Positions 13,232 to 29,950 of a stretch of 64,000 nt of DNA are shown piece by piece. The position numbers were made by a program, and so were the translations under genes. Positions within the stretch are counted from its first letter, which is position 1. Each line of letters starts with the position of its first letter. Under the pieces are notes generated by a model. That model worked only from the letters and a program-made list of their open reading frames with translations, was not told where the DNA came from and made no database searches. The stretch spans positions 7,916 to 71,915 of the forward strand of contig JBBDOX010000007.1 in the NCBI GenBank assembly GCA_040876835.1, in the 5' to 3' direction. Origin of the DNA: Candidatus Anderseniibacteriota bacterium. GTDB lineage: Bacteria > Patescibacteriota > Andersenbacteria > UBA10190.

Positions 13232-14629
13232 GTGATATACTATTTTCATATTAGAGGTCGTATGCAAAGCTATTTTCTGACTAGGGGAAACTCTTTTTTA
13301 GTAGGCATTCTTTTTTGCCTCATAGCATTTTTAGTTCCCCGAGCTGCTTTCGCCGACCCTCACGCTCTGTTCTACACCACCGTAGGGCAACAACAACTCT
13401 TCTTTAATACCCTGGCGGCTCTGGATCAGGCTGATTATGTCGAGCCAAATACTAACAGGCAGGAGCTAGTGCAACAACGGACTGCTACCGGATTCAGTGA
13501 AACGTCTGATCCGTCCATCACTGCCACACATACTGATCTGGCAAGTATTTTGACGCGCAGCATTACACTTGAAGGACAGGATCTCTGGACAGCATATATC
13601 CAATACCAGTTCGCCCTCGAGGATTTTCGACGAGATAACACGAGTGCGCTTGTAACATTGTTTTGTGAACGCGGTTTAGGAGTACTTGGCTGTAAACAGG
13701 GAGAAGAGAAGAATCCAAAGAATGCACAGTTGCGATTGGAGGCAGCATACAACAGTAATCCGTTGGCCGAGGAAGAATATAGACGTGACGCCGGCAATGC
13801 CGCTCTAGCTTCGGGTACGGCTGCCGATCAAGCTGACAGACGGGAGATTCTAAAAGGAAGCCCGGTAAATCCTAACGTATACAGACCATATAGCCCTGAT
13901 ATTGCCCAGTTGCGGAGCACTGCAAACACTTCCGAAAAAGCGGCGGCTGTTGATCGTCTCGTCGCGTCGGCAACTAGCTCTGATGGGAGCGTTTCAACAC
14001 TTTTTAAGGGCTTAGAGATTAATGGGGGTAGGGCATCTCTACCGCCGGGAGCTTCTTTAGACGCATACATGAGTAAAATGTCTGCCGCCATTAGCGCCCC
14101 CGCTCAAATTGACAACATTCGAGACCGAGCTGAGGCTAAGGCTAAAACTGTAAATGAAGAAGTCAATGTCGATGGAGCCTTAGCTGATGTCAGACCTAAG
14201 TTAAATGTTTACAGAGGAACAATCGGTACGATTGACAAGCAAATTGTCAGCCCGGCCTGGAACAAAAAGGCGGAAGGTGAGCAAGCAGTTGCAGCTGCCG
14301 CTGTCACAGAAACCAACTCTATTTATACTGATCCAAACACTGGCGCCGCAAGAGATCAGCGTCTTGTCAAGGAGGGTGAGCGCAGTGGTGTTGCCGGAGC
14401 TACCACGGATAAAACAATAGCAACGGGACAGGTATTAGCCGCTACCGACTTTCCCGACCCTACTCCTCAACCAAGAACACCCATAAATGACCCCGCTGCC
14501 TTTTTCCACGAAGTACCGATAAAACGTTTTTACTCTCTAAACCGAGGCGGAAATCAACGGGGGGGCTGCCAGTGTTCCCTTGATGGAATTGTTAGTGGTT
14601 TCGGGAACGATATTCTTAACAATCCGTGA
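13232..14629 (+). CDS. Secreted/surface protein, hypothetical (first gene of the T4SS-like locus)
   Basis: A 465 aa product with N-terminal signal/TM 'FLVGILFCLIAFLVPRAAFA' and a C-terminal 'GGCQCSLDG' motif. The ATG at 13262 with RBS 'agagg' is an alternative start. Confidence 0.45.
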   Translation: MIYYFHIRGRMQSYFLTRGNSFLVGILFCLIAFLVPRAAFADPHALFYTTVGQQQLFFNTLAALDQADYVEPNTNRQELVQQRTATGFSETSDPSITATHTDLASILTRSITLEGQDLWTAYIQYQFALEDFRRDNTSALVTLFCERGLGVLGCKQGEEKNPKNAQLRLEAAYNSNPLAEEEYRRDAGNAALASGTAADQADRREILKGSPVNPNVYRPYSPDIAQLRSTANTSEKAAAVDRLVASATSSDGSVSTLFKGLEINGGRASLPPGASLDAYMSKMSAAISAPAQIDNIRDRAEAKAKTVNEEVNVDGALADVRPKLNVYRGTIGTIDKQIVSPAWNKKAEGEQAVAAAAVTETNSIYTDPNTGAARDQRLVKEGERSGVAGATTDKTIATGQVLAATDFPDPTPQPRTPINDPAAFFHEVPIKRFYSLNRGGNQRGGCQCSLDGIVSGFGNDILNNP

Positions 14630-16794
14630 TGAGTAGCTCTTTTCTCAAACTCTCAGGAGTAGGCATAGGAACTTTTCTGATACTCGTACTGCCGCTGTAC
14701 GCTGATGCACAAGCAGTGCAAAGAACAAGAGTGGGGGACCTAGAAGCCCCTTTGGAGCTCGGAACAATCACTGGTCAACAGTTGAAAGATAAAGGATGTG
14801 TAGTCAAGGACCGGATTGATGTTGAGGGCGCCTCAACCGCTATAGATCTGGTTGATAGGCCTGTTGGTTGGAGATATGTGTACCCTGCGGATATCAGTGA
14901 CTATATCGACGATAGCATAGGAATTGACTTCGAGCATCCTGTTTTCTTTTTCTGTGAACCAGGGGTAGTAAGTAAAGACCTTGCTCCAGACGAAGACGCG
15001 GATGATGGTTGGTTGGGCGAAAAAACTCTTGTTCGCTGGGCAATAATGGAGATAGCTCGAGCTGTTGCCCAAGTTGGTTTATGGGTCCTGGCTTTAGGGG
15101 GCGCTCTTTTGGGCTGGTCTCTAGGTATTAGAAATTACGCCAGCAGCGATATTGTGCAAAATGGCTGGCCTTTTGTTCAAGGCATTGCGAACCTTGGATT
15201 TATTGTTGCCTTATTGGCTATTGCCCTTCTTATGACCTTGCGCATTGAAGTGGGTGGTGGGGTAAAGAGGTTGCTGCCACGCCTATTTATCGCAGCTCTC
15301 CTTATTAACTTTAGTCTTCTGTTTGGAGAAATCATTATTGATAGTACTCGTCTGCTAATGGCAATCATGATGAGGGCGATCACGGGCAGTAGAGGAGTGA
15401 CGTTTGTAAACTTAGGTACAGAGATTGTTCGAGGATCCGACCTTCTTAATGAATTATTTCACATTGGCACTGCTGGCCCCATCCCAGGATTTGCTTGGAA
15501 AGAAACAGTTGCCACTAATGATCAGAATGTGTTGCGTAGCATTCAAGCTGCAATTCTGGTCTGGGCTGTGGCTATTTCCGTTTTCTTTATTGCAGCCGCT
15601 TTAATAGTTCGCTTTATTATTCTTCTCATTTTACTGATCGCCTCTCCGGCCGCTTACTTAGGCATGGCGATTCCAGGAGCTAAACAGTTAACGGACAAAT
15701 GGTGGTCAAACTTTCTTAAGTGGGCCTTCTTCGGACCAATTTCTTTATTCTTCCTCCTTCTTCTTATTCGCACCACGAACTCTAGTATCGTATCAACGGG
15801 GGTAAAACCGGGCGCGCTTGAAGGGGGAATCATTCCGATTATATTCACAGTAGTAATGTCCGTTATTGCAGTTATAGGAGGATTTCAACTAGGCGGCGTG
15901 GGAAGTGCTGCGACTATGAATGCTATTAAAAAAGGTACCGGGAAGATGGGTCGCGGAGCATATATTGCCACGGGTGCCAGGGGTGGGGTGCGGCAAGTTC
16001 GCGACTTTAGTCGTGAACTAAAGAGCGATGTGGCGAAATCAGCTCGCTCCGGAAAGATGTTTGGTGAGGGCAGGGGCCAAGCAGCTCGTAGTTCCGCTTC
16101 CTGGGTAGCTCGCTTTGTTGCCGGTCCAAAACGTAATGCGGATGGCACACTCGCGAAGGGTGAAACATCTATGGGTACACGCGCGGGTAGCGCAATTGCA
16201 CGACGACTTCCAAGCGGCGCCGGGGATAGGGAATCTATTGCTGCAGCAAGAAAAATAGTCAGCAACAAGAGCAGTCGATCAAATCTACGAGAGGCGACCC
16301 GAACCGAAGAAGCTGCTAAGAAAGCTGAGGCAAGTGGTGATACGGCTGGGGCTCAATCTCTGAGAGATCAAGCTCAAGTTCATCGTGATGCAGGGTTAGG
16401 CGCCCTCTTGAAGCAAGCTGGTCTTGATCGCAATAATCCAGCTGATCAGGGCAAGATCATTGCAAAACTTTCAGACAGCAACTTTATCTTGAATGTACCG
16501 CCCGAGGCCTTAAAAGGCTTTATGGAACACGGCACCGATGGGGAGAAAAATGCTGTTGGAGCCGCCCTGGCTACAGCGGATATGTCTGCTGTGACGCCAA
16601 ATAAACGTAAGGAGGTAATTAAAGCTGTTGTTGACTCCGGCAACACGCAAATTCTGAAGACTGTAGTTAACAATGTTGATTTTGTTGAGCATATGGGTGG
16701 AAGCGATAAAGCAAAAGTCTTCCAGCTGGACGACCAAGCACTGACAACACGTCTTGTACGAACTATGCGTACTGCGGAGCAAAGAAAAAAATAG
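14626..16794 (+). CDS. VirB6/TrbL-like polytopic membrane protein (T4SS channel component candidate) with a long basic disordered C-terminal tail
   Basis: A signal peptide is followed by at least 6 hydrophobic helices (for example 'GLWVLALGGALLGWSLGI', 'LGFIVALLAIALLMTLRI', 'LFIAALLINFSLLFGEIIIDSTRLLMAIMM'). The last 300 aa or so are rich in K/R/A/G. Gene order matches PrgH-PrgI-PrgJ of Gram-positive T4SSs. Confidence 0.5.
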   Translation: MMSSSFLKLSGVGIGTFLILVLPLYADAQAVQRTRVGDLEAPLELGTITGQQLKDKGCVVKDRIDVEGASTAIDLVDRPVGWRYVYPADISDYIDDSIGIDFEHPVFFFCEPGVVSKDLAPDEDADDGWLGEKTLVRWAIMEIARAVAQVGLWVLALGGALLGWSLGIRNYASSDIVQNGWPFVQGIANLGFIVALLAIALLMTLRIEVGGGVKRLLPRLFIAALLINFSLLFGEIIIDSTRLLMAIMMRAITGSRGVTFVNLGTEIVRGSDLLNELFHIGTAGPIPGFAWKETVATNDQNVLRSIQAAILVWAVAISVFFIAAALIVRFIILLILLIASPAAYLGMAIPGAKQLTDKWWSNFLKWAFFGPISLFFLLLLIRTTNSSIVSTGVKPGALEGGIIPIIFTVVMSVIAVIGGFQLGGVGSAATMNAIKKGTGKMGRGAYIATGARGGVRQVRDFSRELKSDVAKSARSGKMFGEGRGQAARSSASWVARFVAGPKRNADGTLAKGETSMGTRAGSAIARRLPSGAGDRESIAAARKIVSNKSSRSNLREATRTEEAAKKAEASGDTAGAQSLRDQAQVHRDAGLGALLKQAGLDRNNPADQGKIIAKLSDSNFILNVPPEALKGFMEHGTDGEKNAVGAALATADMSAVTPNKRKEVIKAVVDSGNTQILKTVVNNVDFVEHMGGSDKAKVFQLDDQALTTRLVRTMRTAEQRKK

Positions 16795-16797: not shown

Positions 16798-17259
16798 ATG
16801 CTTTTACCTCAGGATCCATACCTTAGTACTCCCGCCGGCTCCATCGCGATAATGACAGATGAAGCGCGAGAAGGAGCGTACATAGAAAAATTGCACGGGC
16901 TCCCTCCGCAATCGTTTGAACTTGCAACTTCGATGAAAACTGGAGCGTTTATACGCGGCGTGGTGAAGCAGTTCAATATTCCCGTTGAACGTTCTCCATT
17001 TGTTGCATTTGCTGTCTTACAAATTCTGGTGAAGGAAAGATCCTTAGCTGGATTGGCGCCCACCCTCTCTTCCACTGCCAACTTCCCACAGCAAATTTCG
17101 CAGCAAGTTGCTCGGGAAATTGAACGGGAGCTGTTTTCATTAATTGGATCGGAGTTATCTCAATCGTCAAACACCCAACAGCGCAACCCCCAAGTTAACC
17201 TGAACAATGTTTTGGATCTTAAACAAGCTCCTCCCAAACCTCCAGAAGTTCCTCGCTAG
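16798..17259 (+). CDS. Hypothetical protein inside the T4SS-like operon
   Basis: A 153 aa ORF tightly packed between the VirB6-like and PrgI-like genes. No recognisable motif. Confidence 0.4.
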   Translation: MLLPQDPYLSTPAGSIAIMTDEAREGAYIEKLHGLPPQSFELATSMKTGAFIRGVVKQFNIPVERSPFVAFAVLQILVKERSLAGLAPTLSSTANFPQQISQQVAREIERELFSLIGSELSQSSNTQQRNPQVNLNNVLDLKQAPPKPPEVPR

Positions 17260-17268: not shown

Positions 17269-17721
17269 ATGCGCTTTCAAGTACCACAATTCGTATATGT
17301 TGAGGACAAGGTTATAGGACCTTTTACTCTGAAGCAGTTTTTTATGTACATCGGGGCAGCGATGGTGCTTGTCCCTGTATACATTTTCTCCGACCTGTCT
17401 CTCTTTATTACGGTTGCAATTCCGGTGGCCGGCACCGCTGCGGCATTTGCTCACTTTAAGATTAACAACAAAAGCCTGTTTACCGTCATCACGAATGCCC
17501 TGGGATACTACACATCTTCACCGGTTTATGTATGGCAACGTACGAATAAACTGCAGCCTTTGAAAATCACCGACCCGGCGTGGGATGAGATAGCCACCGC
17601 TAGCCAGCTGGGGGAAAAAGCATCCCCCCTAGCCGCACAATTGAGGGCCCTGGAGACGTCAGGTAACGTCGTTAATAGCGATGACGTTGCAGATGCGCTG
17701 GATCCGGAAGCAACCCCATAA
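17269..17721 (+). CDS. PrgI/VirB3-like small membrane protein
   Basis: The N-terminus 'MRFQVPQFVYVEDKVIGPFTLKQFFMYIGAAMVLVPVYIF' matches the PrgI-family pattern: a conserved VP...D.IfGplTlrQ segment followed by 2 TM helices. It sits immediately upstream of VirB4. Confidence 0.55.
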   Translation: MRFQVPQFVYVEDKVIGPFTLKQFFMYIGAAMVLVPVYIFSDLSLFITVAIPVAGTAAAFAHFKINNKSLFTVITNALGYYTSSPVYVWQRTNKLQPLKITDPAWDEIATASQLGEKASPLAAQLRALETSGNVVNSDDVADALDPEATP

Positions 17722-17745
17722 GCCATGCTATACTAGTCAGACGCT

Positions 17746-18441
17746 ATGGTAGAAGATATGAAGAGCAAGGAAAAGAAAGGAAAGCCGGCTCAGGACTTGG
17801 TGCGGATTTCCGAAATCCGGGAGGGGGTTGTTATCCTCTCAGATGCTGGCATGAGAGCTATTCTCCTAGTTTCATCGGTTAACTTTGCCCTCAAGTCCGA
17901 AGACGAGCAGAATGCCATCATCTATGCGTACCAGGAATTTATTAATTCCCTGGATTTTCCCATCCAGATCAGTATTTCTTCCCGTAAAATGGACATCACC
18001 CCATACCTAGAAGAAGTAAAGCACAAACGAGATACCCAGAAAAATGAACTATTGCGTCTGCAAATGAACGAATACATAGACTTCGTAGGAGGATTAGTAG
18101 AGAACAGCAATATCATGTCAAAAACATTCTTTGTTACGATTTCGTTCTCGGTAGTGCAAAACAAGAAAGAAAACTTTCTAGGCCGTATATTTAAAGGAGT
18201 TAAAAGCGCTACCGGGAAGCACACGTTTAACGACCAGGAATTCGAACATGCCCGTAATCAACTTTTTCAACGAGTAGAGCAGGTAGCTGTAGGCTTGCGT
18301 GGTATTGGACTGCGTGTTGTGCCTTTACAAACCCAGGAACTACTGGAACTTTTTTACAATATGTATAACCCCTCCACTTCTCGCAACCAGCGTCTGCGCG
18401 GTCTGGGAGAGCTTCACATCCAGGAAACCAGTTCCAGCTAG
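17746..18441 (+). CDS. VirB4/TraE-like conjugation ATPase, N-terminal domain fragment (split gene)
   Basis: 'LVRISEIREGVVILSDAGMRAILLVSSVNFALKSEDEQNAIIYAYQEFINSLDFPIQISISSRKMDITPYL' matches the N-terminal domain of Gram-positive VirB4 proteins (PrgJ/TcpF/Orf16 type). It ends at a TAG 20 nt before the next ATG, which is in a different frame. Confidence 0.6.
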   Translation: MVEDMKSKEKKGKPAQDLVRISEIREGVVILSDAGMRAILLVSSVNFALKSEDEQNAIIYAYQEFINSLDFPIQISISSRKMDITPYLEEVKHKRDTQKNELLRLQMNEYIDFVGGLVENSNIMSKTFFVTISFSVVQNKKENFLGRIFKGVKSATGKHTFNDQEFEHARNQLFQRVEQVAVGLRGIGLRVVPLQTQELLELFYNMYNPSTSRNQRLRGLGELHIQETSSS

Positions 18442-18463
18442 TGTGGTGTGCTATTATTAGCTC

Positions 18464-20299
18464 ATGGGGATTTTTCAAGATACATTCGCTTTCCTGCGCG
18501 GCTCTAAAAAGAAGGGGCAGCAAACAGAGGCAGAGGAGGATGCAACGCTCAAAAATTACAACGAGGGCGTAGCTTCTGTGCGGGACATTATTGCTCCCGC
18601 CGGATTTAAGGTAAACCCCAAGTCCATTGAAATTGACGGAAAGTATGCGTCAACGCTGTTTGTAATAACATACCCGCGCTACCTCGACACCAACTGGTTC
18701 TCTCCAATTGTAAACTTTGACATTGAATTTGACGTAGGGATGTTTATTTACCCTCAGGACTCCGCCGCTATTTTAAAACAGCTGAGAAAGCAGGTTACCC
18801 GGGTATCGGCTTCTCTTTCTATGCAGGCGGAGGGAGGCAAGGTCCGTGATCCCCAACTGGAAACTGCCTATCAGGACATTGAAGAGCTGCGGGATCGCCT
18901 CGTGCAGGGGACGGAGCGTTTTTACCAGTACGGGCTATACATAACGCTGTACGCGAATTCAGAAATAGAGCTAGAACAAACCGTCTCTCAAGTGGAAGTT
19001 TTACTTGAAGGGCGCCTGGTGTATGCAAAGCCAGCTCTCTTTCAAGCCCTGCAAGGATTCACCTCCACATTGCCTTTAGGTCACGACCGTCTAGGAGTTT
19101 CAACAAACATGAATACTTCGCCGCTTTCTACGACGTTTCCTTTTGTCAGCTCAGACCTTACCAGCAACAGCGGGGTTCTGTATGGTATTAACCTTCATAA
19201 TAACAGCCTGGTGCTCTTTGATCGGTTCAGCTTAGAAAATGCCAACATGGTTATTTTTGCTAAATCTGGTGCGGGTAAAAGCTACACCGTGAAACTTGAG
19301 ATTTTGCGTAGTCTAATGTTCGGCACTGAGGTAATCGTCATTGATCCAGAGCAGGAGTATAAATATTTGTCGGAGGCGGTAGGTGGCAGTTACCTGCGTA
19401 TTGCTATCGCGTCTGATCACCGCATCAATCCTTTCGATTTACCAGAGCTTGGGGAAGATGAAAACCCTGAGGCAGTATTAAGGGAGAATATAACCCGTTT
19501 AATCGGACTTGTTTCCTTGATGGCCAACGGCGTGTCTCCCGAAGAAGAATCGCTCGTGGATAAAGCGCTATGGGAATCTTACGCTATTAAAGATATTACT
19601 CCCGGTGCCCGATGGGCAAAGCCGGAGGTGCCGACCTTACAGGATTTTTACAATATCCTGCGCGACATGCAGGGGGGACAGAGTATTGCTTTACGTATCC
19701 AGCGGTATGTGGAAGGAACATTCGCCGGCGTATTTAACCGCCCTACGAATATTGACCTGGATAACCAGCTCATTGTCTTTAACATTCGGGACATGGAAGA
19801 AGAGCTGCGACCGATCGCCATGTATGTGGTACTTGGATTTATCTGGAATCGGGTGCGCAGCCAGCTTAAGCGACGCATTCTGGCCGTGGATGAGGCCTGG
19901 ATCATGATGCAAAACGAAGAGTCAGCCAAGTTTTTGTTTTCGATGGCCAAGCGAGCTCGCAAATATTACCTGGGGGTTACCACAATCACTCAGGACATTA
20001 CGGACTTTTTAGGCTCCAAATATGGCAAGCCTATTGTCACCAACTCTTCAATTCAGCTACTTCTTCGTCAGTCACCGGCGGCTATCGATCTTCTTTCGGA
20101 GGTATTTTACTTAACTGACCATGAGAAGTTTCGTCTACTTGAAAGCGACGTGGGAGAAGGTATCTTCTTTGCCGGACTCAAGCACGTAGCAATTAAAGTG
20201 GTTGCCAGTTACGCTGAAGATCAGGTGATTACCTCTGATCCGCAGCAAATTCTAGCTATTGAAGCAGCTAAAAAAGAATTAGCGCAGATAGAAACCTAG
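18464..20299 (+). CDS. VirB4/TrbE/CagE-like T4SS ATPase, central and C-terminal ATPase domains
   Basis: Walker A is 'MVIFAKSGAGKSYTVK' and Walker B 'ILAVDEAW'. 'IDGKYASTLFVITYPRYLDTNWFSPIVNFDIEFDVGMFIYPQD' is typical of the VirB4 middle domain. Confidence 0.8.
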   Translation: MGIFQDTFAFLRGSKKKGQQTEAEEDATLKNYNEGVASVRDIIAPAGFKVNPKSIEIDGKYASTLFVITYPRYLDTNWFSPIVNFDIEFDVGMFIYPQDSAAILKQLRKQVTRVSASLSMQAEGGKVRDPQLETAYQDIEELRDRLVQGTERFYQYGLYITLYANSEIELEQTVSQVEVLLEGRLVYAKPALFQALQGFTSTLPLGHDRLGVSTNMNTSPLSTTFPFVSSDLTSNSGVLYGINLHNNSLVLFDRFSLENANMVIFAKSGAGKSYTVKLEILRSLMFGTEVIVIDPEQEYKYLSEAVGGSYLRIAIASDHRINPFDLPELGEDENPEAVLRENITRLIGLVSLMANGVSPEEESLVDKALWESYAIKDITPGARWAKPEVPTLQDFYNILRDMQGGQSIALRIQRYVEGTFAGVFNRPTNIDLDNQLIVFNIRDMEEELRPIAMYVVLGFIWNRVRSQLKRRILAVDEAWIMMQNEESAKFLFSMAKRARKYYLGVTTITQDITDFLGSKYGKPIVTNSSIQLLLRQSPAAIDLLSEVFYLTDHEKFRLLESDVGEGIFFAGLKHVAIKVVASYAEDQVITSDPQQILAIEAAKKELAQIET

Positions 20300-20305: not shown

Positions 20306-20701
20306 ATGGCTCTCGGACAAGAACAAGTAAATAAGGCGGAACTAAGCAAGGGTCAAAACTCTCGAGGCGGCTCTTCTCATCACCTCAGTCCAAAGACGTC
20401 CGGAATGGCCGGCAATAACCCCAAAGATAGGCTCGCCTTGGCGCGCAATATACAGCAACAACCTGTTGTAGAAGCTAAGGCAGCAGCGGGAAAATGGGCA
20501 GGCCGAGCACTGGGAGCGTACCTTCTTCCCGGAGTAGGCGGCCTCCCCGGGGGTATGATCGGTGAAAAAGTGGGGCGAATGAGCACTCCAAAACAAATTC
20601 TTCTCTTCGGGTTACTGGGAGTATACGCGCTTATACAACCTCTTATACCAATAGTAATTCTCCTTATCATGGTCGTTCTTATTGTCTCCTCTATTGCATG
20701 A
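20306..20701 (+). CDS. Small C-terminally anchored membrane protein (hypothetical T4SS accessory)
   Basis: A hydrophilic N-terminus is followed by the C-terminal TM 'ILLFGLLGVYALIQPLIPIVILLIMVVLIVSSIA'. It overlaps the next gene by 4 nt. Confidence 0.4.
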   Translation: MALGQEQVNKAELSKGQNSRGGSSHHLSPKTSGMAGNNPKDRLALARNIQQQPVVEAKAAAGKWAGRALGAYLLPGVGGLPGGMIGEKVGRMSTPKQILLFGLLGVYALIQPLIPIVILLIMVVLIVSSIA

Positions 20702-21135
20702 GCTTCCGTAACATCACATTATTTTTCGCATTCCTTTCCCTGCTGGGCAGTACTTTCTTTGGAGCAGGTCAGTACGCGCTCGCTCAAGCACCTTGCCCTC
20801 CCGGTTCTTTGTACGGATGTCTGGAAGCGCCTCTGCCTGGCCAAAAAAGCACTAACATTGATGATTTGGTACGAGCAAATTCGCCCTTGCTGACGTATAT
20901 AGATATAGTCGTTAAATTTGTTATTGCCATCATCGTGGTGATCAGCGTTATCTCTGTTATCGCCGGCGGGTTTGTGTATATGACAGCCGGGGGAGATGCC
21001 AGCAAAGTCGCTCTCGCGAAAACTATAATACTGTCTGCTTTGGGAGGATTAGCCCTCGCTCTCTTGTCATGGGTTCTCCTTAATACAATCAGTCCTCAGT
21101 TTGCCTCACAGCTCCGTGATCCGACCGCTCCGTAG
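20698..21135 (+). CDS. VirB2/TrbC-like pilin candidate
   Basis: A signal peptide 'MSFRNITLFFAFLSLLGSTFFGAGQYALA' is followed by two hydrophobic segments ('IVVKFVIAIIVVISVISVIAGGFVYM', 'IILSALGGLALALLSWVLL'), the architecture of conjugative pilins. It is the last gene of the locus. Confidence 0.4.
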   Translation: MSFRNITLFFAFLSLLGSTFFGAGQYALAQAPCPPGSLYGCLEAPLPGQKSTNIDDLVRANSPLLTYIDIVVKFVIAIIVVISVISVIAGGFVYMTAGGDASKVALAKTIILSALGGLALALLSWVLLNTISPQFASQLRDPTAP

Positions 21136-22294
21136 GTCTCCTAACTAAAAAGCCTATTAACATCCACCACAAAATGGCGAGATCGTTTTTCCAGTAGACA
21201 GTATCAACCAGTCCCAGCAGGAGTATTGCTATCAAAGCCAAGCAAATAGCAGTTTGATTTTTCCAGGATTTTCTTACAACTACTGCTGCCAGGGTTGCGA
21301 AGCTTAGCAGTCCAGTTAGCCCAAGGTTGAGCCAGAAAGATAGCACCCAGTTGTGGGGATCGCGAAAGACAAACTCCGGCAGCGGCTCGCTTAGTAAGAC
21401 TCCGCTGTGAAAAGAGGAGAATCGTTCATGAAGGTGTTGTTGGTAGGCAGGCTCAAAGGTGCCCAACCCGATACCAAGCAGGGGGTGTTCTGTAACGATT
21501 TCCCAGGAAATGCTCCACAGCTGCAGCCGCACAGCAGCGCTACTATCCAGCTGGAACAAATACGATATTTTATCCTGCAGGAGAATGCCGCTCCCTAGAA
21601 GTGTGAGTATACCTGCCGCTATCAGTCCGCGTCTGGCTGTTAAGGAAACAACTTTCGGAAAAAACAACATGCCAAGCACGAAGGTAAACACCACCGCAAT
21701 AATTGCGCCTACTGTTTGAGCAGCAAGCAGGGCAGCCGCCATAATTGCGCTCGCGGTCCACAACGCGCCCGGACGTATCCCTTGCAGCGCCCTCCAGGTT
21801 GCCATAGTAAGGATAGGAGCAATATACAGCGCAAGAGAGTTGGGTACGTCATACACACTTCTGACCCGATCCAGCGAGTCCAGCTGAGTCAGCCCGATCA
21901 GTGCAACTGCGGTGCCGGAAATAACCAGCGCGTTTACTATAACCGCCTGCCGGCTGTTCTGGGTAAAGACCATCCAGCCATACAGGACAGGCAAAATAAT
22001 CCAGCCTTTTAAAATCCCCAGACTAGTCTCCAGGTGAGGGGAGATAAGTGTCGATAGAGCAGCCGAGAGCACCAAAACGAGGACCAGTATTTTTACTTCC
22101 CACACCAATCCCTGCGTTGCTCTTCTCCAGCTTGTTCGGATTCCATGATCTATCGCTCCCGTCGCGAACGTAGCAATAATAAGCACTTCAAGAACATTCG
22201 TGGGGATACCAGCTACAGAAAACCGCCATAGGTAGGCCGGCAACAGCACCGCCGTCGCAGTCAGCAGAAAAATGTGTAACTTACCGACGGTCAT
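21089..22294 (-). CDS. O-antigen ligase/polymerase-like (Wzy_C family) membrane protein
   Basis: A polytopic protein with 'LGIGLGTFEPAYQQHLHERF...HNWVLSFWLNLGLTGL'. Its 3' end overlaps the convergent VirB2-like gene by 47 nt. Confidence 0.5.
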   Translation of the reverse strand: MTVGKLHIFLLTATAVLLPAYLWRFSVAGIPTNVLEVLIIATFATGAIDHGIRTSWRRATQGLVWEVKILVLVLVLSAALSTLISPHLETSLGILKGWIILPVLYGWMVFTQNSRQAVIVNALVISGTAVALIGLTQLDSLDRVRSVYDVPNSLALYIAPILTMATWRALQGIRPGALWTASAIMAAALLAAQTVGAIIAVVFTFVLGMLFFPKVVSLTARRGLIAAGILTLLGSGILLQDKISYLFQLDSSAAVRLQLWSISWEIVTEHPLLGIGLGTFEPAYQQHLHERFSSFHSGVLLSEPLPEFVFRDPHNWVLSFWLNLGLTGLLSFATLAAVVVRKSWKNQTAICLALIAILLLGLVDTVYWKNDLAILWWMLIGFLVRRPTERSDHGAVRQTED

Positions 22295-23642
22295 AAGGCT
22301 GCATTGAGATTGTCACGATAGCGACAAGAATAACCAAAAGGTGGGCATATAGAAAACTATTTACAAACTGCGAGTGGATAAACAAACCAGCCAGAGCCAG
22401 AACCCCTGCTCCTGCCTGCAAATCCAAGCCCTTAACTGCTTTTCTTCCTAACCATATACCAGCTGCTATCCAGGGCCAGGCAAAAAGAAGGACGCCAATT
22501 AAACCCGTCGTAGCCCATAGCGTCAACCAGCTGTTGTCAGCCCCCGCTCGGGAGTGAAGCGAGAACTGCCCGATAAGGCCTGCATCCACGGCAGCAAACT
22601 GATACGCATTGTAACCCACGCCTACAAGCGCATTCGGCTGAATGATGTGACTCCAAGCCAATGCGAGCGAATCAGTGCGAAGGGTGACTGTGGGATCATA
22701 CTGCACAAACCCTGCCAGACGATCCCCCAATAGCCCCGCAGCTAAAGCTCCCCACACTACGCACATGCCAATAATCCCCACCAAGCGCAGGAGACGGGCA
22801 TGATCACTGCGTATCCGTGCTGCCATTTTCCAGGTGATGTACGGCACAGCGATCGCAAAAATACCCAGGAAAGCTACCAGGCTGCTGCGGGACTGAGTTA
22901 AGGCAATCGCAAGTATTTGTAACACGACTAGTGATGTATACCCCGAGCGCCACAAGACATTTTTTTTCACCGTGCTCCACTGTGCTAATACCCACGGTAG
23001 AGCGACTACCAAAAACGCACCGATAAAGTTGGGATCGAGCCAGGTAGAAACTAGTCGTCGCTGATGGGGATCCCAGCCATATTGCGATAGAAAAGATAAG
23101 TCAGAAAGTAGTATTACCTGTACGATCCCCAGCATTACTAGTCCCGCTACAGTAAAAAACAGCCCGTGCCGTATAGTCGTTCGGTTTATCGGATCAAGCA
23201 TTAAAATAGCCAGGGCAGGGAAGAGCAGAAGGTATGCACTGGTGCGCACCCAGTATAGTCCGGCAATAACGAGCTGGTGCGACTCTAAAGAAAACGCATG
23301 TATAACTAGCGTGAACAAGCTCCAGCCAATGAACGGAAGAACCAGCCAGGCTAGCTGAGCTCCCTTTTGCTGAAAAGGATCCGCAAAACGATTTTTGTAC
23401 CGACGCCAAGATACCACTCCAGCTATAATCGTAAATCCAACCGCCAGATCGCTCGCAAGCAGCCCTCCGCCCTGACCGGCGACCTGAATACGTATCAGCT
23501 GACCCGCTACCACTGAACCAAACAGAAGCCACAGAGCTAGTCGAGGCAGCATCACACTCCACCAGGCAGCCGCAAGCAGCCCTATTGCACCCGAGAGGAG
23601 AACAAGCGGTAGATTTGTCGCAGCAAGCGATGCAAGAGCCAT
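22281..23642 (-). CDS. O-antigen ligase/polymerase-like (Wzy_C family) membrane protein
   Basis: 'LTQSRSSLVAFLG' and 'HSRAGADNSWLTLWATTGLIG' resemble Wzy_C motifs. At least 10 TM helices. Confidence 0.55.
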   Translation of the reverse strand: MALASLAATNLPLVLLSGAIGLLAAAWWSVMLPRLALWLLFGSVVAGQLIRIQVAGQGGGLLASDLAVGFTIIAGVVSWRRYKNRFADPFQQKGAQLAWLVLPFIGWSLFTLVIHAFSLESHQLVIAGLYWVRTSAYLLLFPALAILMLDPINRTTIRHGLFFTVAGLVMLGIVQVILLSDLSFLSQYGWDPHQRRLVSTWLDPNFIGAFLVVALPWVLAQWSTVKKNVLWRSGYTSLVVLQILAIALTQSRSSLVAFLGIFAIAVPYITWKMAARIRSDHARLLRLVGIIGMCVVWGALAAGLLGDRLAGFVQYDPTVTLRTDSLALAWSHIIQPNALVGVGYNAYQFAAVDAGLIGQFSLHSRAGADNSWLTLWATTGLIGVLLFAWPWIAAGIWLGRKAVKGLDLQAGAGVLALAGLFIHSQFVNSFLYAHLLVILVAIVTISMQPYDRR

Positions 23643-24358
23643 ATAGATGTAGCGTAGTGTTTTCGGAAGTATCTGTCAGCTGACTGGTCGTAGAGGTACG
23701 TCTTGCGTCCTATATCCGTCAGACTCATTCCCCGCCGGTGAGTGACCGCGACCAGGGGATAGAGTGTAATACTTTTGCCTTTGGCATGAATTCGCCGGCA
23801 CAGGTCAACATCTTCCCAGTAGAGGAAAAACGTTTCATCAAACCCCCCAACTGCTCGGAATTGCCCAGTATCAACCAGCATGGCCCCTCCCGACACCCAG
23901 CCCACCTGTAACGGTACCGCATCGTCAATAGGCGCCTTACTAATACGACGCCCAAATAGGGACAAGAGCGAAACGGCATCTCCATAAGAACCTTTTTCAG
24001 GGTGGCCCTCAGTATCTTGAAGCCTAAATCCCAACACGGCGACGCTGGCGTGACTGCTAATATATTGCACTGCCTGGTGAATGCTTCCGCTCGCAAGGAA
24101 AGCGTCTGGGTTTAGGAAAATAATATATGGCTTGTCCAGACACTTACTGCCGACATTTGCAGCAGCACCAAATCCTCTGTTCTGATCAAGAGTAACAACC
24201 TGTACAGGGAATTCCCGCACGATATCCAATGTGCTATCAACTGACGCACTGTCCACAACACAAATACTCTGAATTTTCTGGGCCAGCAGAGAGCGAATAC
24301 AATCGGCGATTGTATCTTCGCTGTTATGCGTTACAACAACCGCTCCTACGGCATTCAT
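23582..24358 (-). CDS. Family 2 glycosyltransferase
   Basis: 'MNAVGAVVVTHNSEDTIADCIRSLLAQ' and 'YIIFLNPDA' are present. The ATG at 24358 overlaps the upstream stop as ATGA. The ORF track start at 24409 is a longer alternative. Confidence 0.7.
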   Translation of the reverse strand: MNAVGAVVVTHNSEDTIADCIRSLLAQKIQSICVVDSASVDSTLDIVREFPVQVVTLDQNRGFGAAANVGSKCLDKPYIIFLNPDAFLASGSIHQAVQYISSHASVAVLGFRLQDTEGHPEKGSYGDAVSLLSLFGRRISKAPIDDAVPLQVGWVSGGAMLVDTGQFRAVGGFDETFFLYWEDVDLCRRIHAKGKSITLYPLVAVTHRRGMSLTDIGRKTYLYDQSADRYFRKHYATSIWLLHRLLRQIYRLFSSRVQ

Positions 24359-25173
24359 AGTGAAATTCGACCCATATGATTCTTGCGACTGTCCCGCAAG
24401 GCCCGCCAAACTACGTCCTTTCTGGATACAAAGCGGTGATAGATGAATCTACCCCAGTTAAGCACCTGCCAATATCCTCCCCATGCACCACTTTCCCATG
24501 TCAGCGCCCGAGCTCCATTACGGGCCAGGTAGTACAGTTGGGAAGAAGTAAGATCCTTTCGCATATCATTGTGCTTCACTACGACTTGCGGCAAAGACAC
24601 CAACTGAACTCCCTGCGCAGATAACCGCCAACTCCACGCCACATCTTCCCAATACAAGAAATAGCTAACCGGCAGTCGAGCACGAGTAAATACGTCGAAG
24701 GTTGTGGCAAACAACGACCCGTGAATATACGGCTTTCGATACCAGGCGGCGCGGGTTCTATCTTCGATATGTGCCCGTCCAGAAAACATGTTGACCGAGC
24801 CGCTGCGGGCACCAACAAGAAGGGGAGTTGTCGCGTCCTTAAACATTGCATATATTTTCTCCAATACATCGATTCCCACTTCAGCGTCGTTGTTCATACA
24901 CACCACCACGTCGTCGGGCTGGGCTCCACGTGCTGCCAAAAAGCTCACCCCCACTAAAATACCACCGCTATACCCCGTGTTTGCTGCGGGACGGATAATC
25001 GTTACGGAGTCGCTGATAGCAGAGAGCCTTAAGGGCACATCCGCATGATCCACTATCACTACCGCGTCTGGCAGGCGCCTGCTTCTCATAAGAGCAGATA
25101 GCGCCTGCTGAGTAGGGGTGGCGCTTCCATAATGGACAAGAATGACAAAAATCTTTGGTATTTGTGGAATCAT
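24355..25173 (-). CDS. Family 2 glycosyltransferase
   Basis: 'MIPQIPKIFVILVHYGSATPTQQALSAL' and 'VVVCMNNDAEV' are present. The internal ATG at 25173 is the preferred start. Confidence 0.65.
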   Translation of the reverse strand: MIPQIPKIFVILVHYGSATPTQQALSALMRSRRLPDAVVIVDHADVPLRLSAISDSVTIIRPAANTGYSGGILVGVSFLAARGAQPDDVVVCMNNDAEVGIDVLEKIYAMFKDATTPLLVGARSGSVNMFSGRAHIEDRTRAAWYRKPYIHGSLFATTFDVFTRARLPVSYFLYWEDVAWSWRLSAQGVQLVSLPQVVVKHNDMRKDLTSSQLYYLARNGARALTWESGAWGGYWQVLNWGRFIYHRFVSRKDVVWRALRDSRKNHMGRISL

Positions 25174-25242
25174 TGTGGATAAGTATGTGGAAAAGCGTAG
25201 GTAATATGTGCACAAAACGTCCTTAAACCATTTTTCTGCTCT

Positions 25243-26190
25243 TTATACAGCATCATTCGAACGATTGAGGATTTTCTTTTCTCCGGTATACCAACCCACC
25301 CAGAATTCAGCAGCTGTAGCGTAGAGAAATAGCCGAGGCAGACTGTATATACCCCCTAGTACTGTAACAGTCTTCCACGCTATCCACCTGATTCCAAGGT
25401 ACTGATACACGAGCGTTTTCAGGCGCCGTAAAGTGGTAGGAGGGGGCAAAAGCGCTATATGAGGATACCGACGCTGATATATAGTTGCTCCCTGACCAAC
25501 CTCATACTGCCGCCGCTGAATGGCGGGGGCAGTATATGCATGGCGATGCAGTCCCACCGCCTTATGAAGAACAGCAAGAGTGAGACCGCGAGGAGCCAAC
25601 ATGCGCCCCAGGTCTAAATCCTCCCAGCCATAGCGAGTATATATGGTTGGAAACTCCTGGCCACGCAGGGCTCTCCGTTTTATAGAAAGGTGAGAACCAT
25701 AAAAAAAGTGCGCCGAGTCTGCCTGATATATACCCAGTAGTGCATCAAAGTTATTTTGTGGGCCACCATGCACCATCCACTCCATTAAAGGTGTGGGCTT
25801 AAGGCGCGGATCCCACACAACCATACCAAGAGCAGCGTTCATTTCATCCGGAAACTTGGTATGAAAGCAGCCGTGCTCTTTGAGCGCGCCGGCACGCAGT
25901 ATAATGTCCGCTCCTAAGAAGATCACTATATCCGCGTCAGAAACTGCCAAGCCCCGATTCCGGGCTCCGGCGCCGCCGATGTGCTGTCCGGTTACAACAA
26001 CAGGCTCCCGCCAAGGAGAAGACCACGCAAGCGCATGTACGACAGACTGCGGACTAGTGCGTGAACCATCATCAGACACAATTACCCGGGGCTGCCACCC
26101 TTCATTAATAACTTGGTCGCGCAACGCCGCTAATGTATGCGACAAAACACCTTCGCTATTGTAGGTAGGGATGATAATGTCGATCTTCAT
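25243..26190 (-). CDS. Family 2 glycosyltransferase
   Basis: 'MKIDIIIPTYNSEGVLSHTLAALRDQ' and 'VIVSDDGS' are present. It overlaps the flippase gene by 4 nt. Confidence 0.75.
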   Translation of the reverse strand: MKIDIIIPTYNSEGVLSHTLAALRDQVINEGWQPRVIVSDDGSRTSPQSVVHALAWSSPWREPVVVTGQHIGGAGARNRGLAVSDADIVIFLGADIILRAGALKEHGCFHTKFPDEMNAALGMVVWDPRLKPTPLMEWMVHGGPQNNFDALLGIYQADSAHFFYGSHLSIKRRALRGQEFPTIYTRYGWEDLDLGRMLAPRGLTLAVLHKAVGLHRHAYTAPAIQRRQYEVGQGATIYQRRYPHIALLPPPTTLRRLKTLVYQYLGIRWIAWKTVTVLGGIYSLPRLFLYATAAEFWVGWYTGEKKILNRSNDAV

Positions 26191-27635
26191 ATGATGTGCT
26201 TTTTTTGTAGCAATAAAGACATGCTCCGCGGATCAAGAGTCCTGACAAAAACCGCAATTGCCACGTATAGCACAGCTAACACACAGAGCCGCACAAGAAT
26301 GTGCCAGGTGTCCGATAGTAACAGGGCAACACCGCCAGATACAGCCGCTATTGCTAGTGAGCTAATAATTACTATAACGGGTACTCGAAAGCGTATTTCC
26401 TTCCACACTAGCCACCCGGCGGTAAGCGTTGCCGCCCCTTCAGTGACTAGCGTTGTCCAGGCAGCCGCTATTGCTCCATACAAAGGAACAAAGATCAGAT
26501 TAGCCGCTACGTTTCCTGCTACCAGTGCCGCATACAGTAAAAGGAGCTGCTTTTGTTTGTGGAGAGATACTAACGCAAAACCAAATATGTTACCGACGAA
26601 CATGAATGCCAGCGCCCCGGCAAGAATTTGGACAATGGGAGCGGCGGCAGCAAACTCAACACCTGATAAAAATATGAGGATATCTGAGGCAAAAATCGCC
26701 AGCGATCCGGCGGCTAAAACTCCAACTATAACCATAAAACGCAGCGCCTGCTCCAGTAAACGCTGCACCACCGAGTAGGCCTGACGAGAGTAGAGCACAG
26801 CCAGCTGTGGTAATAAGAGACCACCGAACATTGCGGGAAAGAAGAGTCCGCTTTCTATAATGCGGTAAGCTAGGCCATACAACCCCACCTCATCCGATGA
26901 ACGAAATAAGGAAATAATTACAATATCAGTTCTGAAGTAGATAACATTAAGAACCAACAGTAAACCTAACGGCCAAGAGGATTTAAGTAATACCCACCAG
27001 CGAGCCGGGGAGACCTGGAAGCGCCAGGGCTGTATTGCTGGCACTAATAGCACATGCACCCCGTACGCAACTACCGCACCAGCTAAGAATGCTCCAGCCA
27101 TATATAGCACTGCCGTGGTCGCAGATACAGACGAGATCGGTACCTGCCTTACAATCAAAAATACAATGCCAAACTGTAATAATCGCCCTATTACATCTCC
27201 AAACGTTGCCTTCCATACCTCTTTGTACTTCTGATATACCCCCATTAGCAGCTGGCTAAACGATTGAGCTACTAGCCCTAGCGCAATGATGACAAACACG
27301 GGAAGCAGGGCACGGTATTGTGGAAGCAGTGTAATAACAACTGCGGCTGTGCCTATCCATGCAACCAGCAAAGCTGCACGCAGAGACGATATTATCCCAA
27401 ACAACTCCTGCTCTTTCTTTTCCTGCTCAGCGATATCGCGAGTCAAAGTGAGATATAGCCCAAAGTCGGCGGCAATCTGTACCATCGTTCCCACCGAAAG
27501 CAGGAGAGCGTATGAGCCATACCCAGCCGCTCCTAAATACCTGGTTACCAGTGCGGTGGTGGCTATACCTAAAACGATCGTACCGATACGGCCAGCACCC
27601 GAAATAAGCGTGTTAGAAAAAATAGATTGCGCCAT
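26187..27635 (-). CDS. Wzx-type polysaccharide/oligosaccharide flippase (MOP superfamily)
   Basis: A 482 aa polytopic protein. The N-terminus is 'MAQSIFSNTLISGAGRIGTIVLGIATTALVTRYLGAAGYGSYALLLS'. Confidence 0.7.
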   Translation of the reverse strand: MAQSIFSNTLISGAGRIGTIVLGIATTALVTRYLGAAGYGSYALLLSVGTMVQIAADFGLYLTLTRDIAEQEKKEQELFGIISSLRAALLVAWIGTAAVVITLLPQYRALLPVFVIIALGLVAQSFSQLLMGVYQKYKEVWKATFGDVIGRLLQFGIVFLIVRQVPISSVSATTAVLYMAGAFLAGAVVAYGVHVLLVPAIQPWRFQVSPARWWVLLKSSWPLGLLLVLNVIYFRTDIVIISLFRSSDEVGLYGLAYRIIESGLFFPAMFGGLLLPQLAVLYSRQAYSVVQRLLEQALRFMVIVGVLAAGSLAIFASDILIFLSGVEFAAAAPIVQILAGALAFMFVGNIFGFALVSLHKQKQLLLLYAALVAGNVAANLIFVPLYGAIAAAWTTLVTEGAATLTAGWLVWKEIRFRVPVIVIISSLAIAAVSGGVALLLSDTWHILVRLCVLAVLYVAIAVFVRTLDPRSMSLLLQKKHII

Positions 27636-27667: not shown

Positions 27668-28210
27668 CTAGAGAAAAACAGGACGAACAACGACTCGCCG
27701 ATTTGGTTCTTCGCCAAGGCTTTCTGTCTGAATATCTTTGTGCCGCGCCAAAGCCGTGTGAACCGAACGTCGGTCAGAAGCAGACATAGGTTGTAGAACA
27801 ACGGTTCTACCCGTTCGCACCGCCTTACGAGCTACTTCTTCAGCCAAGCCCAGCAGACTTCTTTCTCGTCGGGCCCGGTATCCGTTCACATCAACCGATA
27901 CGCGCAATCCAGCAGGAAGCTGCTTGCGCAATACACACCGCATAGTGTGCTGTAAAGCATTTAGGTGAGCTCCTTGAGTACCAATAAGCATTCTGCCGGC
28001 TTCTCCCGCCTCAATAGCAATTTGAAGGGCCTCATCTTCACCATATTGACAGCTAACCTGAACATCTTCGAAGCCCATAATCTCAAGCACTCGGCGGACA
28101 TGCTCAGCAAGCAAAAGCACTGCTGGCTGGTCAAATGTCACGCCCTGCTGAGTGTGCTGTGCGGTTTCCATACTGTGAATGCTACGCAGGATCGACCCAA
28201 ATGGCAACAT
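27668..28210 (-). CDS. jag: Jag/KhpB-like RNA-binding protein (KH plus R3H domains)
   Basis: The R3H motif is 'VVLQPMSASDRRSVHTALARHKDIQTESLGEEPNRRVVVRP'. It sits in the conserved yidC-jag position. Confidence 0.8.
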   Translation of the reverse strand: MLPFGSILRSIHSMETAQHTQQGVTFDQPAVLLLAEHVRRVLEIMGFEDVQVSCQYGEDEALQIAIEAGEAGRMLIGTQGAHLNALQHTMRCVLRKQLPAGLRVSVDVNGYRARRERSLLGLAEEVARKAVRTGRTVVLQPMSASDRRSVHTALARHKDIQTESLGEEPNRRVVVRPVFL

Positions 28211-28237
28211 TTGTGCCCCGGCACTTAAAATTGTGCC

Positions 28238-28996: not shown

Positions 28997-28999
28997 ATA

Positions 29000-29248
29000 T
29001 TAATGCCTAGGAACAGGATCGTGCCCACCAGCAGCAAAGGGATGACACCTACCGATTCGCTTAACCACCATACCAATTCCACGCCAGCCGTACTGCTCAA
29101 TAGCCTGAGTGGCATACTGTGAGCAAGTAGGTGTAAACCTACACACCGGCCCCAAGGCAGACCGAAGCAGCCCATGGTCAGGGGAAACCGTCTTTTGATA
29201 GATACGAATAACGAAAACAAGAATTGTTACAAAGCGAGAGTGAGTCAT
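29000..29248 (-). CDS. yidD: Membrane protein insertion efficiency factor YidD
   Basis: '[15 protein letters not shown]...[19 protein letters not shown]' is present. Confidence 0.8.
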
Positions 29249-29255
29249 GTGTCCT

Positions 29256-29582: not shown

Positions 29583-29586
29583 ACCT

Positions 29587-29891: not shown

Positions 29892-29950
29892 TATGATATG
29901 ATCACTTGTGCGTTAGGTTTCTGTTTGTATTTAGTGCTCTCACGTACCCC

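Follow-up and report, generated by a model that had tools for sequence, protein, structure and literature searches.

Does a VirB4 gene that falls into two open reading frames in the genome of a Candidatus Anderseniibacteriota bacterium encode two working polypeptides, or is it a damaged or recoded version of one? The two frames, ORF1 and ORF2, lie in a 64,000-nucleotide stretch of contig JBBDOX010000007.1, referred to as the window (Table 1). A sequence-only reading of this DNA had placed them in different frames, and we confirm this together with its coordinates and lengths (ORF1 in frame 1, 17746 mod 3 = 1; ORF2 in frame 2). It had also proposed a combined VirB4 of about 840 aa, in agreement with the total of 842 aa and with the colinearity of the two parts with full-length VirB4. 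The closeness of the ORFs is likewise correct, but the spacer measures 22 nt and not the 20 nt given there. NCBI annotates the ORFs separately, as MEX0649558.1, which starts 4 codons downstream of the ORF1 ATG, and MEX0649559.1. The sequence-only reading listed a genuine two-polypeptide VirB4, a pseudogene or sequencing error, and a programmed frameshift without choosing among them. Our analysis bears out the first: ORF1 and ORF2 are very probably two separate functional genes of a chromosomal T4SS, together specifying a two-part VirB4.

Table 1. Features of the VirB4 region (positions in the window)
Feature	Position	Strand	Remarks
VirB6-like large polytopic membrane protein, 722 aa (tentative)	14626..16794	+	weak NCBIfam Mbov_0396 ICE transmembrane match, E 8e-3
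PrgI-family (VirB3-like) small membrane protein, 150 aa	17269..17721	+	Pfam PrgI PF12666, E 1e-6
Extended -10-like box TGCTATACT	17726..17734	+	11 nt upstream of ORF1 ATG; putative promoter
ORF1, 231 aa	17746..18441	+	ATG start, stop TAG 18439-18441; TrsD-like stand-alone protein, putative detached N-terminal portion of VirB4 N-terminal domain
Non-coding spacer ORF1/ORF2	18442..18463	+	22 nt
-10-like hexamer in TGCTATTAT	18449-18457	+	ends 6 nt ahead of ORF2 ATG
ORF2, 611 aa	18464..20299	+	ATG start; NCBI MEX0649559.1; VirB4 core (second half of N-terminal domain plus C-terminal ATPase domain)
Walker A AKSGAGKS	19259..19282	+	ORF2 residues 266-273, intact
Walker B ILAVDE	19877..19894	+	ORF2 residues 472-477, intact
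VirB2-like T4SS pilin, 145 aa	20698..21135	+	Pfam T4SS_pilin E 2e-4; NCBIfam Mbov_0395 pilin-like E 1e-5

Adjacent ORFs in different frames, the second with no SD ahead of it, bear a superficial likeness to a frameshift, and the sequence-only reading had warned that the whole T4SS-like locus would be inactive if the gene were a pseudogene. The junction itself argues against a frameshift pseudogene or a sequencing or assembly error. Specifically, a TAG at 18458-18460 lies inside the spacer in frame with ORF2, one codon ahead of its ATG, so that each frame has its own stop (TAG 18439 and TAG 18458) and no single indel can fuse ORF1 with ORF2.

We compared the window with 80 loci drawn from GTDB species representatives of Andersenbacteria, Moranbacteria and their relatives. 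An ORF1 homologue is present in 78 of the 80 loci, the contigs of the remaining two ending too early, and the comparison of orthologues that had been suggested earlier found ORF1 and ORF2 to be separate genes in all 78 informative loci, with the break consistently at this site. The ORF1 homologue lies upstream on the strand of ORF2 in 77 loci, always with a terminal stop, and all three stop codons are in use at ORF1 ends. The split is kept down to amino-acid identities of about 45% for ORF1 and 58% for ORF2. Among database proteins, the best 120 homologues of ORF1 are all stand-alone proteins of 225-248 aa (63-100% identity), and the best 120 homologues of ORF2 are all 558-657 aa long (77-100% identity), with none near 840 aa; the split thus holds in 240 of the 240 closest database homologues. 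Conservation of the split extends over Andersenbacteria, Moranbacteria and related lineages. Apparent fusions in the junction table were rejected: in L048, the tblastn alignment had crossed a stop at 3872-3874 that is followed by an ATG at 3887, and the others are ATGA overlaps.

The same junctions bear on a programmed ribosomal frameshift, or a bypass of the 22-nt gap, that would produce a single full-length VirB4. The close spacing of the ORFs, and nothing more, speaks for such a mechanism. A recoding signal of the dnaX or prfB type would need a conserved frame relationship, whereas among the 78 tabulated junctions (77 same-strand loci plus the window) relative frames 0, 1 and 2 occur in roughly equal numbers (22, 24 and 32, respectively), and the frame differs even in the closest relative, L001 (93% ORF2 identity), because its spacer is 23 nt long. 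Across the loci, the shortest spacer is -4 nt (an ATGA overlap) and the longest, 1389 nt, contains inserted genes. In particular, other ORFs lie between the ORF1 and ORF2 homologues in L014 and L002, while in L011 the PrgI and ORF1 pair alone is inverted, which places ORF1 on the opposite strand. Furthermore, TAG 18458 would halt any ribosome that shifted into the ORF2 frame ahead of 18439. Programmed frameshifting, with a vanishingly small probability and the least likely of the readings considered here, is excluded on three grounds: the variable relative frame, the intervening genes and the inverted locus.

Codon comparison with L001 shows that ORF1 and ORF2 are both under purifying selection. 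NG86 dN/dS was not computable, dS being saturated, and direct codon counts were used instead. ORF1 keeps the amino acid in 192 of 231 codons, 102 of which use a different codon; ORF2 keeps it in 567 of 611, with a different codon in 310. The amino-acid sequence of ORF1 evolves about twice as fast as that of ORF2 (dN 0.11 versus 0.05). In contrast, the genuinely broken VirB4 of L082 has lost residues 90-192, with homology resuming in another frame, whereas in the window Walker A and Walker B are intact and the break falls at a disordered, hypervariable linker and not within a domain. A pseudogene or error, of exceedingly low probability, is excluded because there are two stops in two frames, the split is conserved and selection is purifying. 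The T4SS locus shows no inactivating lesion, and the worry on that score was unfounded.

ORF2 belongs to the VirB4/TraC family by curated score (371 bits against NCBIfam NF045971, VirB4-like, CD1110 family; cut-off 325), by possession of both Walker motifs and by its T4SS gene cluster context. It also matches Pfam P-loop_TraG (86.6 bits, cut-off 25.8), AAA_10 and DUF87, as well as the VirB4 C-terminal domain of PDB 4AG5 (E 2e-43). The NF045971 alignment covers model positions 175-733 of 752, and since it starts near position 175, the complete N-terminal domain is absent from the ORF2 polypeptide, which is a VirB4 core and not a full-length VirB4. The missing N-terminus is matched by ORF1, which aligns with positions 2-124 of 752 in the CD1110 family model and with 95-235 of 894 in Mbov_0397. 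Against NCBIfam NF041427 (TrsD/TraD), ORF1 scores 23 bits (E 6e-5; residues 12-142 versus model 12-152 of 201), below membership at a cut-off of 200; since the homology is remote only, we call ORF1 TrsD-like and do not assign it to this NCBIfam subfamily. Precomputed annotation lists PF26593.2 for the 100%-identical proteins P0001 and P0002, for all 120 ORF1 homologues and for the fused proteins that bear the N-terminus; a direct Pfam search with ORF1 and P0369, probably in a copy without this model, gave no PF26593 match.

A profile of 45 ORF1 homologues detected no sequence-level relative in the PDB (best E 1.2, irrelevant). The predicted fold of ORF1 nevertheless matches R388 VirB4 TrwK (7O41/8RTD), a link made by fold comparison only, and structure prediction shows in this way that ORF1 has a VirB4-like fold. 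The PHROG match of ORF1 is to a family named 'terminase large subunit'.

Alignment also shows that fused relatives exist which are colinear with ORF1 followed by ORF2. In the fused Colwellbacteria VirB4 P0369 (797 aa), residues 9-211 correspond to ORF1 residues 16-211 and residues 226-791 to ORF2 residues 35-599, and Pfam TraC_F_IV spans the junction. The AF2 model of P0369, although of low confidence (pLDDT 61.7), is in gross terms colinear with TrwK from end to end. Of 120 homologues of P0369, 118 are 775-807 aa long, and fused TrsD-VirB4 forms dominate a Colwellbacteria clade; because this clade is large and conserved and has the same domain order, both parts can function within a single polypeptide. 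In large sister clades, Colwellbacteria for one, the fused form is retained. The window therefore resembles single-polypeptide VirB4 proteins (P0369, the CD1110 family, TrwK) in its colinear order and ATPase motifs, and differs from them in that the first ~210 structured residues form a polypeptide with its own stop and the remainder has its own start. The linker of P0369 comprises 14 residues, whereas in the window its place is taken by ~20 ORF1 tail residues, the 22-nt spacer and ~34 ORF2 head residues.

The arrangement is reminiscent of staphylococcal plasmid pSK41, in which trsC (PrgI-like, 135 aa), trsD (227 aa) and trsE (VirB4-like, 672 aa) follow one another in the order of PrgI (150 aa), ORF1 (231 aa) and ORF2 (611 aa). 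Like TrsD, ORF1 is a stand-alone protein of the ~200-230 aa class encoded between a PrgI/TrsC-like gene and a VirB4-like ATPase gene, and the trsD-trsE gap is 14 nt. ORF1 and TrsD appear to correspond from end to end (blastp covers residues 21-208 versus 40-216, E 5e-4). Residue 9 of ORF2 pairs with residue 4 of TrsE, so that ORF2 and TrsE share the same alignment start. Similarity is very low (19% identity for ORF1/TrsD, 26% for ORF2/TrsE), and hhalign of the 45-sequence ORF1 profile against TrsD gives a match that fits remote homology but is not strong (probability 51%, E 1.6e-4, 166 columns). The pSK41/pGO1 system (MPF_FATA subclass) is a plasmid conjugation machine with relaxase and coupling protein, whereas published Patescibacteria T4SSs mostly have no relaxase (PMC12102498).

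These comparisons suggest that ORF1 represents about the first 200 residues of a canonical VirB4 and ORF2 the rest. The division, whether the gene was split or its parts were never fused, probably lies at a linker that is short, variable and disordered, at the same boundary as in pSK41 TrsD/TrsE. The two polypeptides would come together again in trans as a VirB4-like unit. The N-terminal domain of R388 VirB4 is enwrapped by VirB3 (PMC9259494); in the reassembled unit, ORF1 may accordingly provide the surface gripped by the PrgI/VirB3-like protein and so anchor the ATPase hexamer to the membrane channel.

Alternatively, the TrsD-like protein could have common ancestry with the VirB4 N-terminus and yet no longer belong to VirB4, being instead an independent T4SS accessory factor. 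It might then serve as an assembly chaperone, as a regulator, or as an adaptor for substrate or pilin, with ORF2 alone as the working ATPase. The inserted genes of L014 and L002 and the inversion in L011 show that ORF1 and ORF2 are separable, TrsD homologues of Gracilibacteria do not adjoin virB4 (PMC12102498), long low-complexity tails are present at the C-terminus of many ORF1 homologues, and the faster evolution of ORF1 also points this way. We consider this improbable: the clade of fused proteins sharing this domain order is large and conserved, ORF1 accompanies ORF2 in every informative locus, and the predicted ORF1 fold matches VirB4 itself.

The analysis shows that ORF2 starts independently. 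The sequence-only reading had seen no clear SD ahead of 18464, which is correct; SD-like sites are scarce in the window (12 of 53 ORFs), so that their absence here is typical of the genome and no warning sign. By a custom positional count, from which the -10-only and extended -10 signals derive, TANNNT ends 3-12 nt ahead of the start in 26 of 53 window ORFs, versus a background of 12% (p 8.5e-11), and the 6 nt between the ORF2 box and its ATG is the modal distance in the window. The box ahead of ORF1 is part of this enrichment. Scanning for complete sigma-70 promoters (-35 plus -10) gave no hit at either junction. Ahead of ORF2, the Andersenbacteria relatives have an ATGA overlap, TGnTAnnnT boxes or GGAGG, and a TGnTAnnnT box like that in the spacer of the window ends ~6-8 nt ahead of the ATG in most Andersenbacteria-type loci with a spacer. 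ORF2 is thus probably translated from its own start, on a transcript that would be leaderless, or nearly so, and driven by the -10-like box of the spacer, and in relatives its translation may be reached through ATGA translational coupling or an SD. A literature search on leaderless translation in CPR gave nothing relevant.

The surrounding genes are those of a T4SS, about 9 kb from dnaA on the chromosome. The PrgI gene immediately upstream of ORF1 scores 29.7 bits against PF12666 (cut-off 27), and in all 75 loci in which both were detected, a PrgI homologue precedes ORF1 on the same strand. We tentatively assign 14626..16794 to a VirB6-like T4SS component by profile match; 37 related loci have a homologue, which in L011, the only layout inspected, occupies the corresponding position. 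Both scores of the candidate pilin are under the curated cut-offs.

The two-gene arrangement of a TrsD-like gene and virB4 is an ordinary one that has already been published. Among T4SS components of Patescibacteria the most abundant is TrsD, a remote homologue of the VirB4 N-terminus, with 2,272 homologues detected by the MPF_FATA TrsD HMM (a CONJScan/MacSyFinder profile), of which 1,664 adjoin virB4 (Quinonero-Coronel et al. 2025, PMC12102498). The same work lists the TrsD homologue of Ca. Southlakia epibionticum as essential; the T4SS locus of strain ML1 is an essential one (Wang et al. 2023, PMC10633639). The window matches these systems in its phylum-level lineage, chromosomal location and set of components (PrgI/VirB3-like, TrsD-like, VirB4, VirB6-like and VirB2-like pilin); nothing essential differs, and it is one more instance. 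A literature search on 'split VirB4' found nothing, and the main text of Guglielmini et al. 2014, the source cited for the TrsD homology, contains no mention of TrsD by name. Three points that a term search did not find in PMC12102498 are added here: the pSK41 TrsD/TrsE boundary falls at the same place as the junction, the fused TrsD-VirB4 form is dominant in a Colwellbacteria clade, and the predicted ORF1 fold matches R388 VirB4. In practical terms, a false alarm is removed, in that adjacent VirB4-like ORF pairs in Patescibacteria should not be flagged as pseudogenes. According to PMC12102498, TrsD has no assigned function, and we propose a testable role for it as the detached VirB3-binding part of VirB4.

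It is conceivable, though we think it doubtful, that the split at the linker is adaptive and not neutral, allowing the stoichiometry or timing of ATPase docking to be set independently of the membrane platform. If so, the PrgI/VirB3-binding subdomain would be a separate unit, the ATPase core would here have its own leaderless promoter, and perhaps a subset of ATPase protomers would be tethered, compare the 'central' and 'outside' VirB4 subunits of R388. Such a regulatory layer would be specific to the essential non-conjugative T4SSs of Patescibacteria and to pGO1-type plasmids. The VirB3-VirB4 fusions of some conjugative systems (PMC12102498) represent the opposite direction, fusion rather than fission, whereas PrgI is a separate gene in the window; such fusions show that evolution can shift the boundaries separating VirB3, the VirB4 N-terminal domain and the ATPase.

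The sequence-only reading had described a VirB4 divided between two adjacent ORFs in different frames. The coordinates, lengths, strand and frames of both ORF1, the TrsD-like detached N-terminal portion, and ORF2, the VirB4 core with the ATPase domain, are confirmed, while the spacer measures 22 nt rather than the 20 nt given there. A TAG at 18458–18460 closes the ORF2 frame one codon 5′ of the ORF2 ATG, and leaving the ORF1 frame before 18439 leads to that stop. Because a stop is present in each frame (18439 and 18458), no single indel, whether genuine or an artefact, can join the two ORFs. At NCBI, identical proteins are annotated as two genes with consecutive accessions (MEX0649558.1 and MEX0649559.1) in a Candidatus Andersenbacteria MAG.

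Features of the T4SS locus and its surroundings in the window
Feature	Coordinates	Strand	Remarks
Large VirB6-like membrane protein	14626–16794		Weak match
Small ORF, T4SS cluster	16798–17259		153 aa; no family match; homologues in 18 related loci
PrgI/VirB3-like gene	17269–17721		T4SS neighbour
ORF1 box, TGCTATACT	17726–17734
ORF1	17746–18441	+	Frame 1; 231 aa; stop TAG 18439–18441
ORF2 box, TGCTATTAT	18449–18457		Ends 6 nt before ATG
ORF2	18464–20299	+	Frame 2; 611 aa
Small ORF, T4SS cluster	20306–20701		131 aa; no family match; homologue in only 1 related locus
VirB2-like pilin	20698–21135		T4SS neighbour
Cell-envelope glycan cluster	21089–27635	−	Between T4SS locus and origin
Two Wzy_C/O-antigen-ligase-like proteins	21089–23642	−	Glycan cluster
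Family-2 glycosyltransferase	25243–26190	−	Glycan cluster
Polysaccharide-biosynthesis/flippase protein	26187–27635	−	Glycan cluster
Chromosomal origin region	27668–32724
jag/R3H	27668–28210	−
yidC	28238–28996	−
rnpA	29256–29582	−
dnaA	29906–31363	+	TTG start; rnpA, yidC, jag adjoining
dnaN	31624–32724	+

ORF1 matches the N-terminal end of full-length VirB4 models (positions 2–124 of 752 in the CD1110 family and 95–235 of 894 in Mbov_0397), and matches the stand-alone TrsD/TraD family weakly (23 bits; cut-off 200). ORF2 matches positions 175–733 of the CD1110 family model with a score of 371 bits (cut-off 325), contains P-loop_TraG, AAA_10 and DUF87 domains with Walker A (AKSGAGKS) and Walker B (ILAVDE) motifs, and matches the solved VirB4 ATPase domain 4AG5 at 2e-43. 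ORF1 residues 34–132 also match PHROG phrog_2666, labelled ‘terminase large subunit’ (E 1.3e-8), which may reflect an N-terminal module that P-loop translocases have in common, or a wrong label on a phage family.

The split is conserved without exception among the sampled relatives. Every one of the best 120 database homologues of ORF1 (63–100% identity) is 225–248 aa long, and every one of the best 120 of ORF2 (77–100% identity) is 558–657 aa long. A scan with ORF2 of one genome per GTDB species yielded 80 loci (58–93% identity) from Andersenbacteria, Moranbacteria/Moraniibacteriota, Paceibacterota and others, 78 of them informative, as two contigs stop before the upstream region. A separate ORF1 homologue, as sought in the comparison of orthologous loci proposed earlier, is present in all 78, and lies upstream on the same strand in 77, with a stop codon at its end in each. 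Of the 78 junctions of these 77 loci and the window, 22 have relative frame 0, 24 frame 1 and 32 frame 2, the ORF1 stop is TAA, TGA or TAG at 32, 25 and 21 junctions, respectively, and the spacing extends up to 1389 nt, the closest being a 4-nt ATGA overlap, seen in 11 loci. Two ORFs intervene in locus L014 and one in L002, while in L011 the PrgI and ORF1 pair alone is inverted in an otherwise colinear locus and is therefore transcribed divergently from ORF2. In the closest relative, L001 (93% ORF2 identity), the spacer is 23 nt instead of 22 nt, and the relative frame thus differs from that of the window. The L011 segment (L011:2810–3953; JACPWO010000001.1, Andersenbacteria), a single MAG assembly, shows the two parts of VirB4 uncoupled in nature. 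Among the records of L002–L080, many ‘binchicken’ co-assembly MAGs with Andersenbacteria- or Moranbacteria-type loci bear the title ‘uncultured Candidatus Saccharibacteria’ or ‘uncultured Bdellovibrionales’, which looks like taxonomic mislabelling.

Because the split is kept while frames, stops, spacers, inserts and orientation vary among relatives, three of the origins initially considered are excluded. A frameshift pseudogene is ruled out by a split common to 78 loci with freely differing junctions, a sequencing or assembly error by the lack of any single indel joining the ORFs and by relatives that are likewise split, and a programmed frameshift by the varying relative frames and spacers, the inserted ORFs and the L011 inversion. 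In the comparison with L001, the amino acid is unchanged at 192 of the 231 ORF1 codons, 102 of these 192 differing synonymously, and at 567 of the 611 ORF2 codons, with 310 synonymous differences; dN is 0.11 for ORF1 and 0.05 for ORF2, and dS is saturated. In contrast, a genuinely damaged gene from the fused-VirB4 clade (L082:1282–3458; CAYJCP010000001.1) has residues 1–89 in one frame, lacks residues 90–192, and resumes homology in another frame (193–796), a lesion that marks either a pseudogene or an error of co-assembly. The fourth origin, a genuine two-polypeptide VirB4, is borne out: ORF1 and ORF2 are shown to be two genes, conserved, under selection and separately initiated, which add up to one VirB4.

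The earlier remark was that no clear Shine-Dalgarno-like (SD) site precedes 18464. SD-like sites are rare across the window: of its 53 ORFs with at least 120 aa, 12 have one, and the median duplex energy is −1.5 kcal/mol. A TANNNT box (−10-like, often TGn-extended) ends 3–12 nt 5′ of the start codon in 26 of the 53 (background 12%, p 8.5e-11), with a modal distance of 6 nt, a pattern that would be expected of leaderless or very short-leader mRNAs; a literature search for leaderless initiation in CPR brought up no paper. In Andersenbacteria-type loci, the ORF2 start shows one of three arrangements: an ATGA overlap with ORF1 (of the nine such overlaps in the closer loci, L001–L027, eight are Andersenbacteria-type), a TGnTAnnnT box ending ~6–8 nt before the ATG (L001, L007, L011, L014–L018 and L020–L022), or GGAGG (L027). 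The VirB4 of L011 retains a TGGTATGAT box 8 nt 5′ of its ATG. These arrangements give the same gene several ways of initiating independently, and protein conservation of ORF2 starts at the first residue (MGIFQDTF) in twelve loci. Three Andersenbacteria-type loci with neither an ATGA overlap nor a −10-like box (L002, L009 and L010) have a common ATCCTTCA motif just upstream of the VirB4 ATG.

Fused forms locate the boundary. A search of 1.84 billion cluster representatives with ORF1 returned 2,335 matches, among the best 150 of which 148 are stand-alone (107–443 aa, many with low-complexity tails) and the other two are full-length (797 and 898 aa). The 797-aa protein, P0369 from Candidatus Colwellbacteria, belongs to a large fused clade (775–807 aa in 118 of its 120 best homologues). 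ORF1 residues 16–211 align with P0369 residues 9–211, and ORF2 residues 35–599 with 226–791. Since only 14 residues separate the two blocks, Pfam TraC_F_IV spans the junction point, and the tail of the predicted ORF1 model (221–231) is disordered, the boundary is a short, variable linker inside what Pfam takes to be a single N-terminal domain. Hypervariability of the linker region is seen among Moranbacteria-type loci (L044, L046, L047, L049, L052–L054, L065, L069, L072, L073 and L078). The VirB4 core is in some cases extended at its N-terminus by 140–260 aa, and 56 of 150 ORF1 representatives are 260–450 aa long; the two inspected, P0259 and P0303, have Pro/Ala/Gln/Glu-rich C-terminal tails of ~170–200 aa.

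The two-gene VirB4 is an ordinary arrangement, already published. The staphylococcal conjugative plasmid pSK41 has the same gene order, trsC (PrgI-like), trsD (227 aa) and trsE (672 aa, VirB4-like). TrsE residue 4 aligns with ORF2 residue 9 (26% identity, E 1e-44), and TrsD aligns weakly with ORF1 end to end (19%, E 5e-4; profile E 1.6e-4, probability 51%), placing the TrsD/TrsE boundary, on these alignments, at the ORF1/ORF2 boundary. Quinonero-Coronel et al. (2025; PMC12102498) reported 2,272 TrsD homologues across 2,221 assemblies, with a VirB4 association for 1,664 of the homologues, and, following Wang et al. 2023 (PMC10633639), list the TrsD homologue of Ca. Southlakia epibionticum ML1 as essential. 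The passages of that paper retrieved by term search mention VirB3–VirB4 fusions only, none observed there, and hold nothing on fused TrsD–VirB4 forms.

We propose that the ORF1 and ORF2 products would reassemble into a VirB4-like protomer. ORF1 most likely supplies the PrgI/VirB3-binding module through which the ATPase core is tethered to the membrane channel, because the VirB4 N-terminal domain of R388 is wrapped by VirB3 (PMC9259494), PrgI lies directly upstream of ORF1 in 75 of 75 loci with both genes, and the two moved together in the L011 inversion. The main rival, an independent accessory role into which the TrsD-like protein would have drifted, is improbable.

Like published Patescibacteria T4SS loci, which are often near dnaA (PMC12102498), the T4SS genes of the window lie ~9 kb from dnaA. 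The cumulative GC-skew minimum falls at ~28–32 kb of the window.
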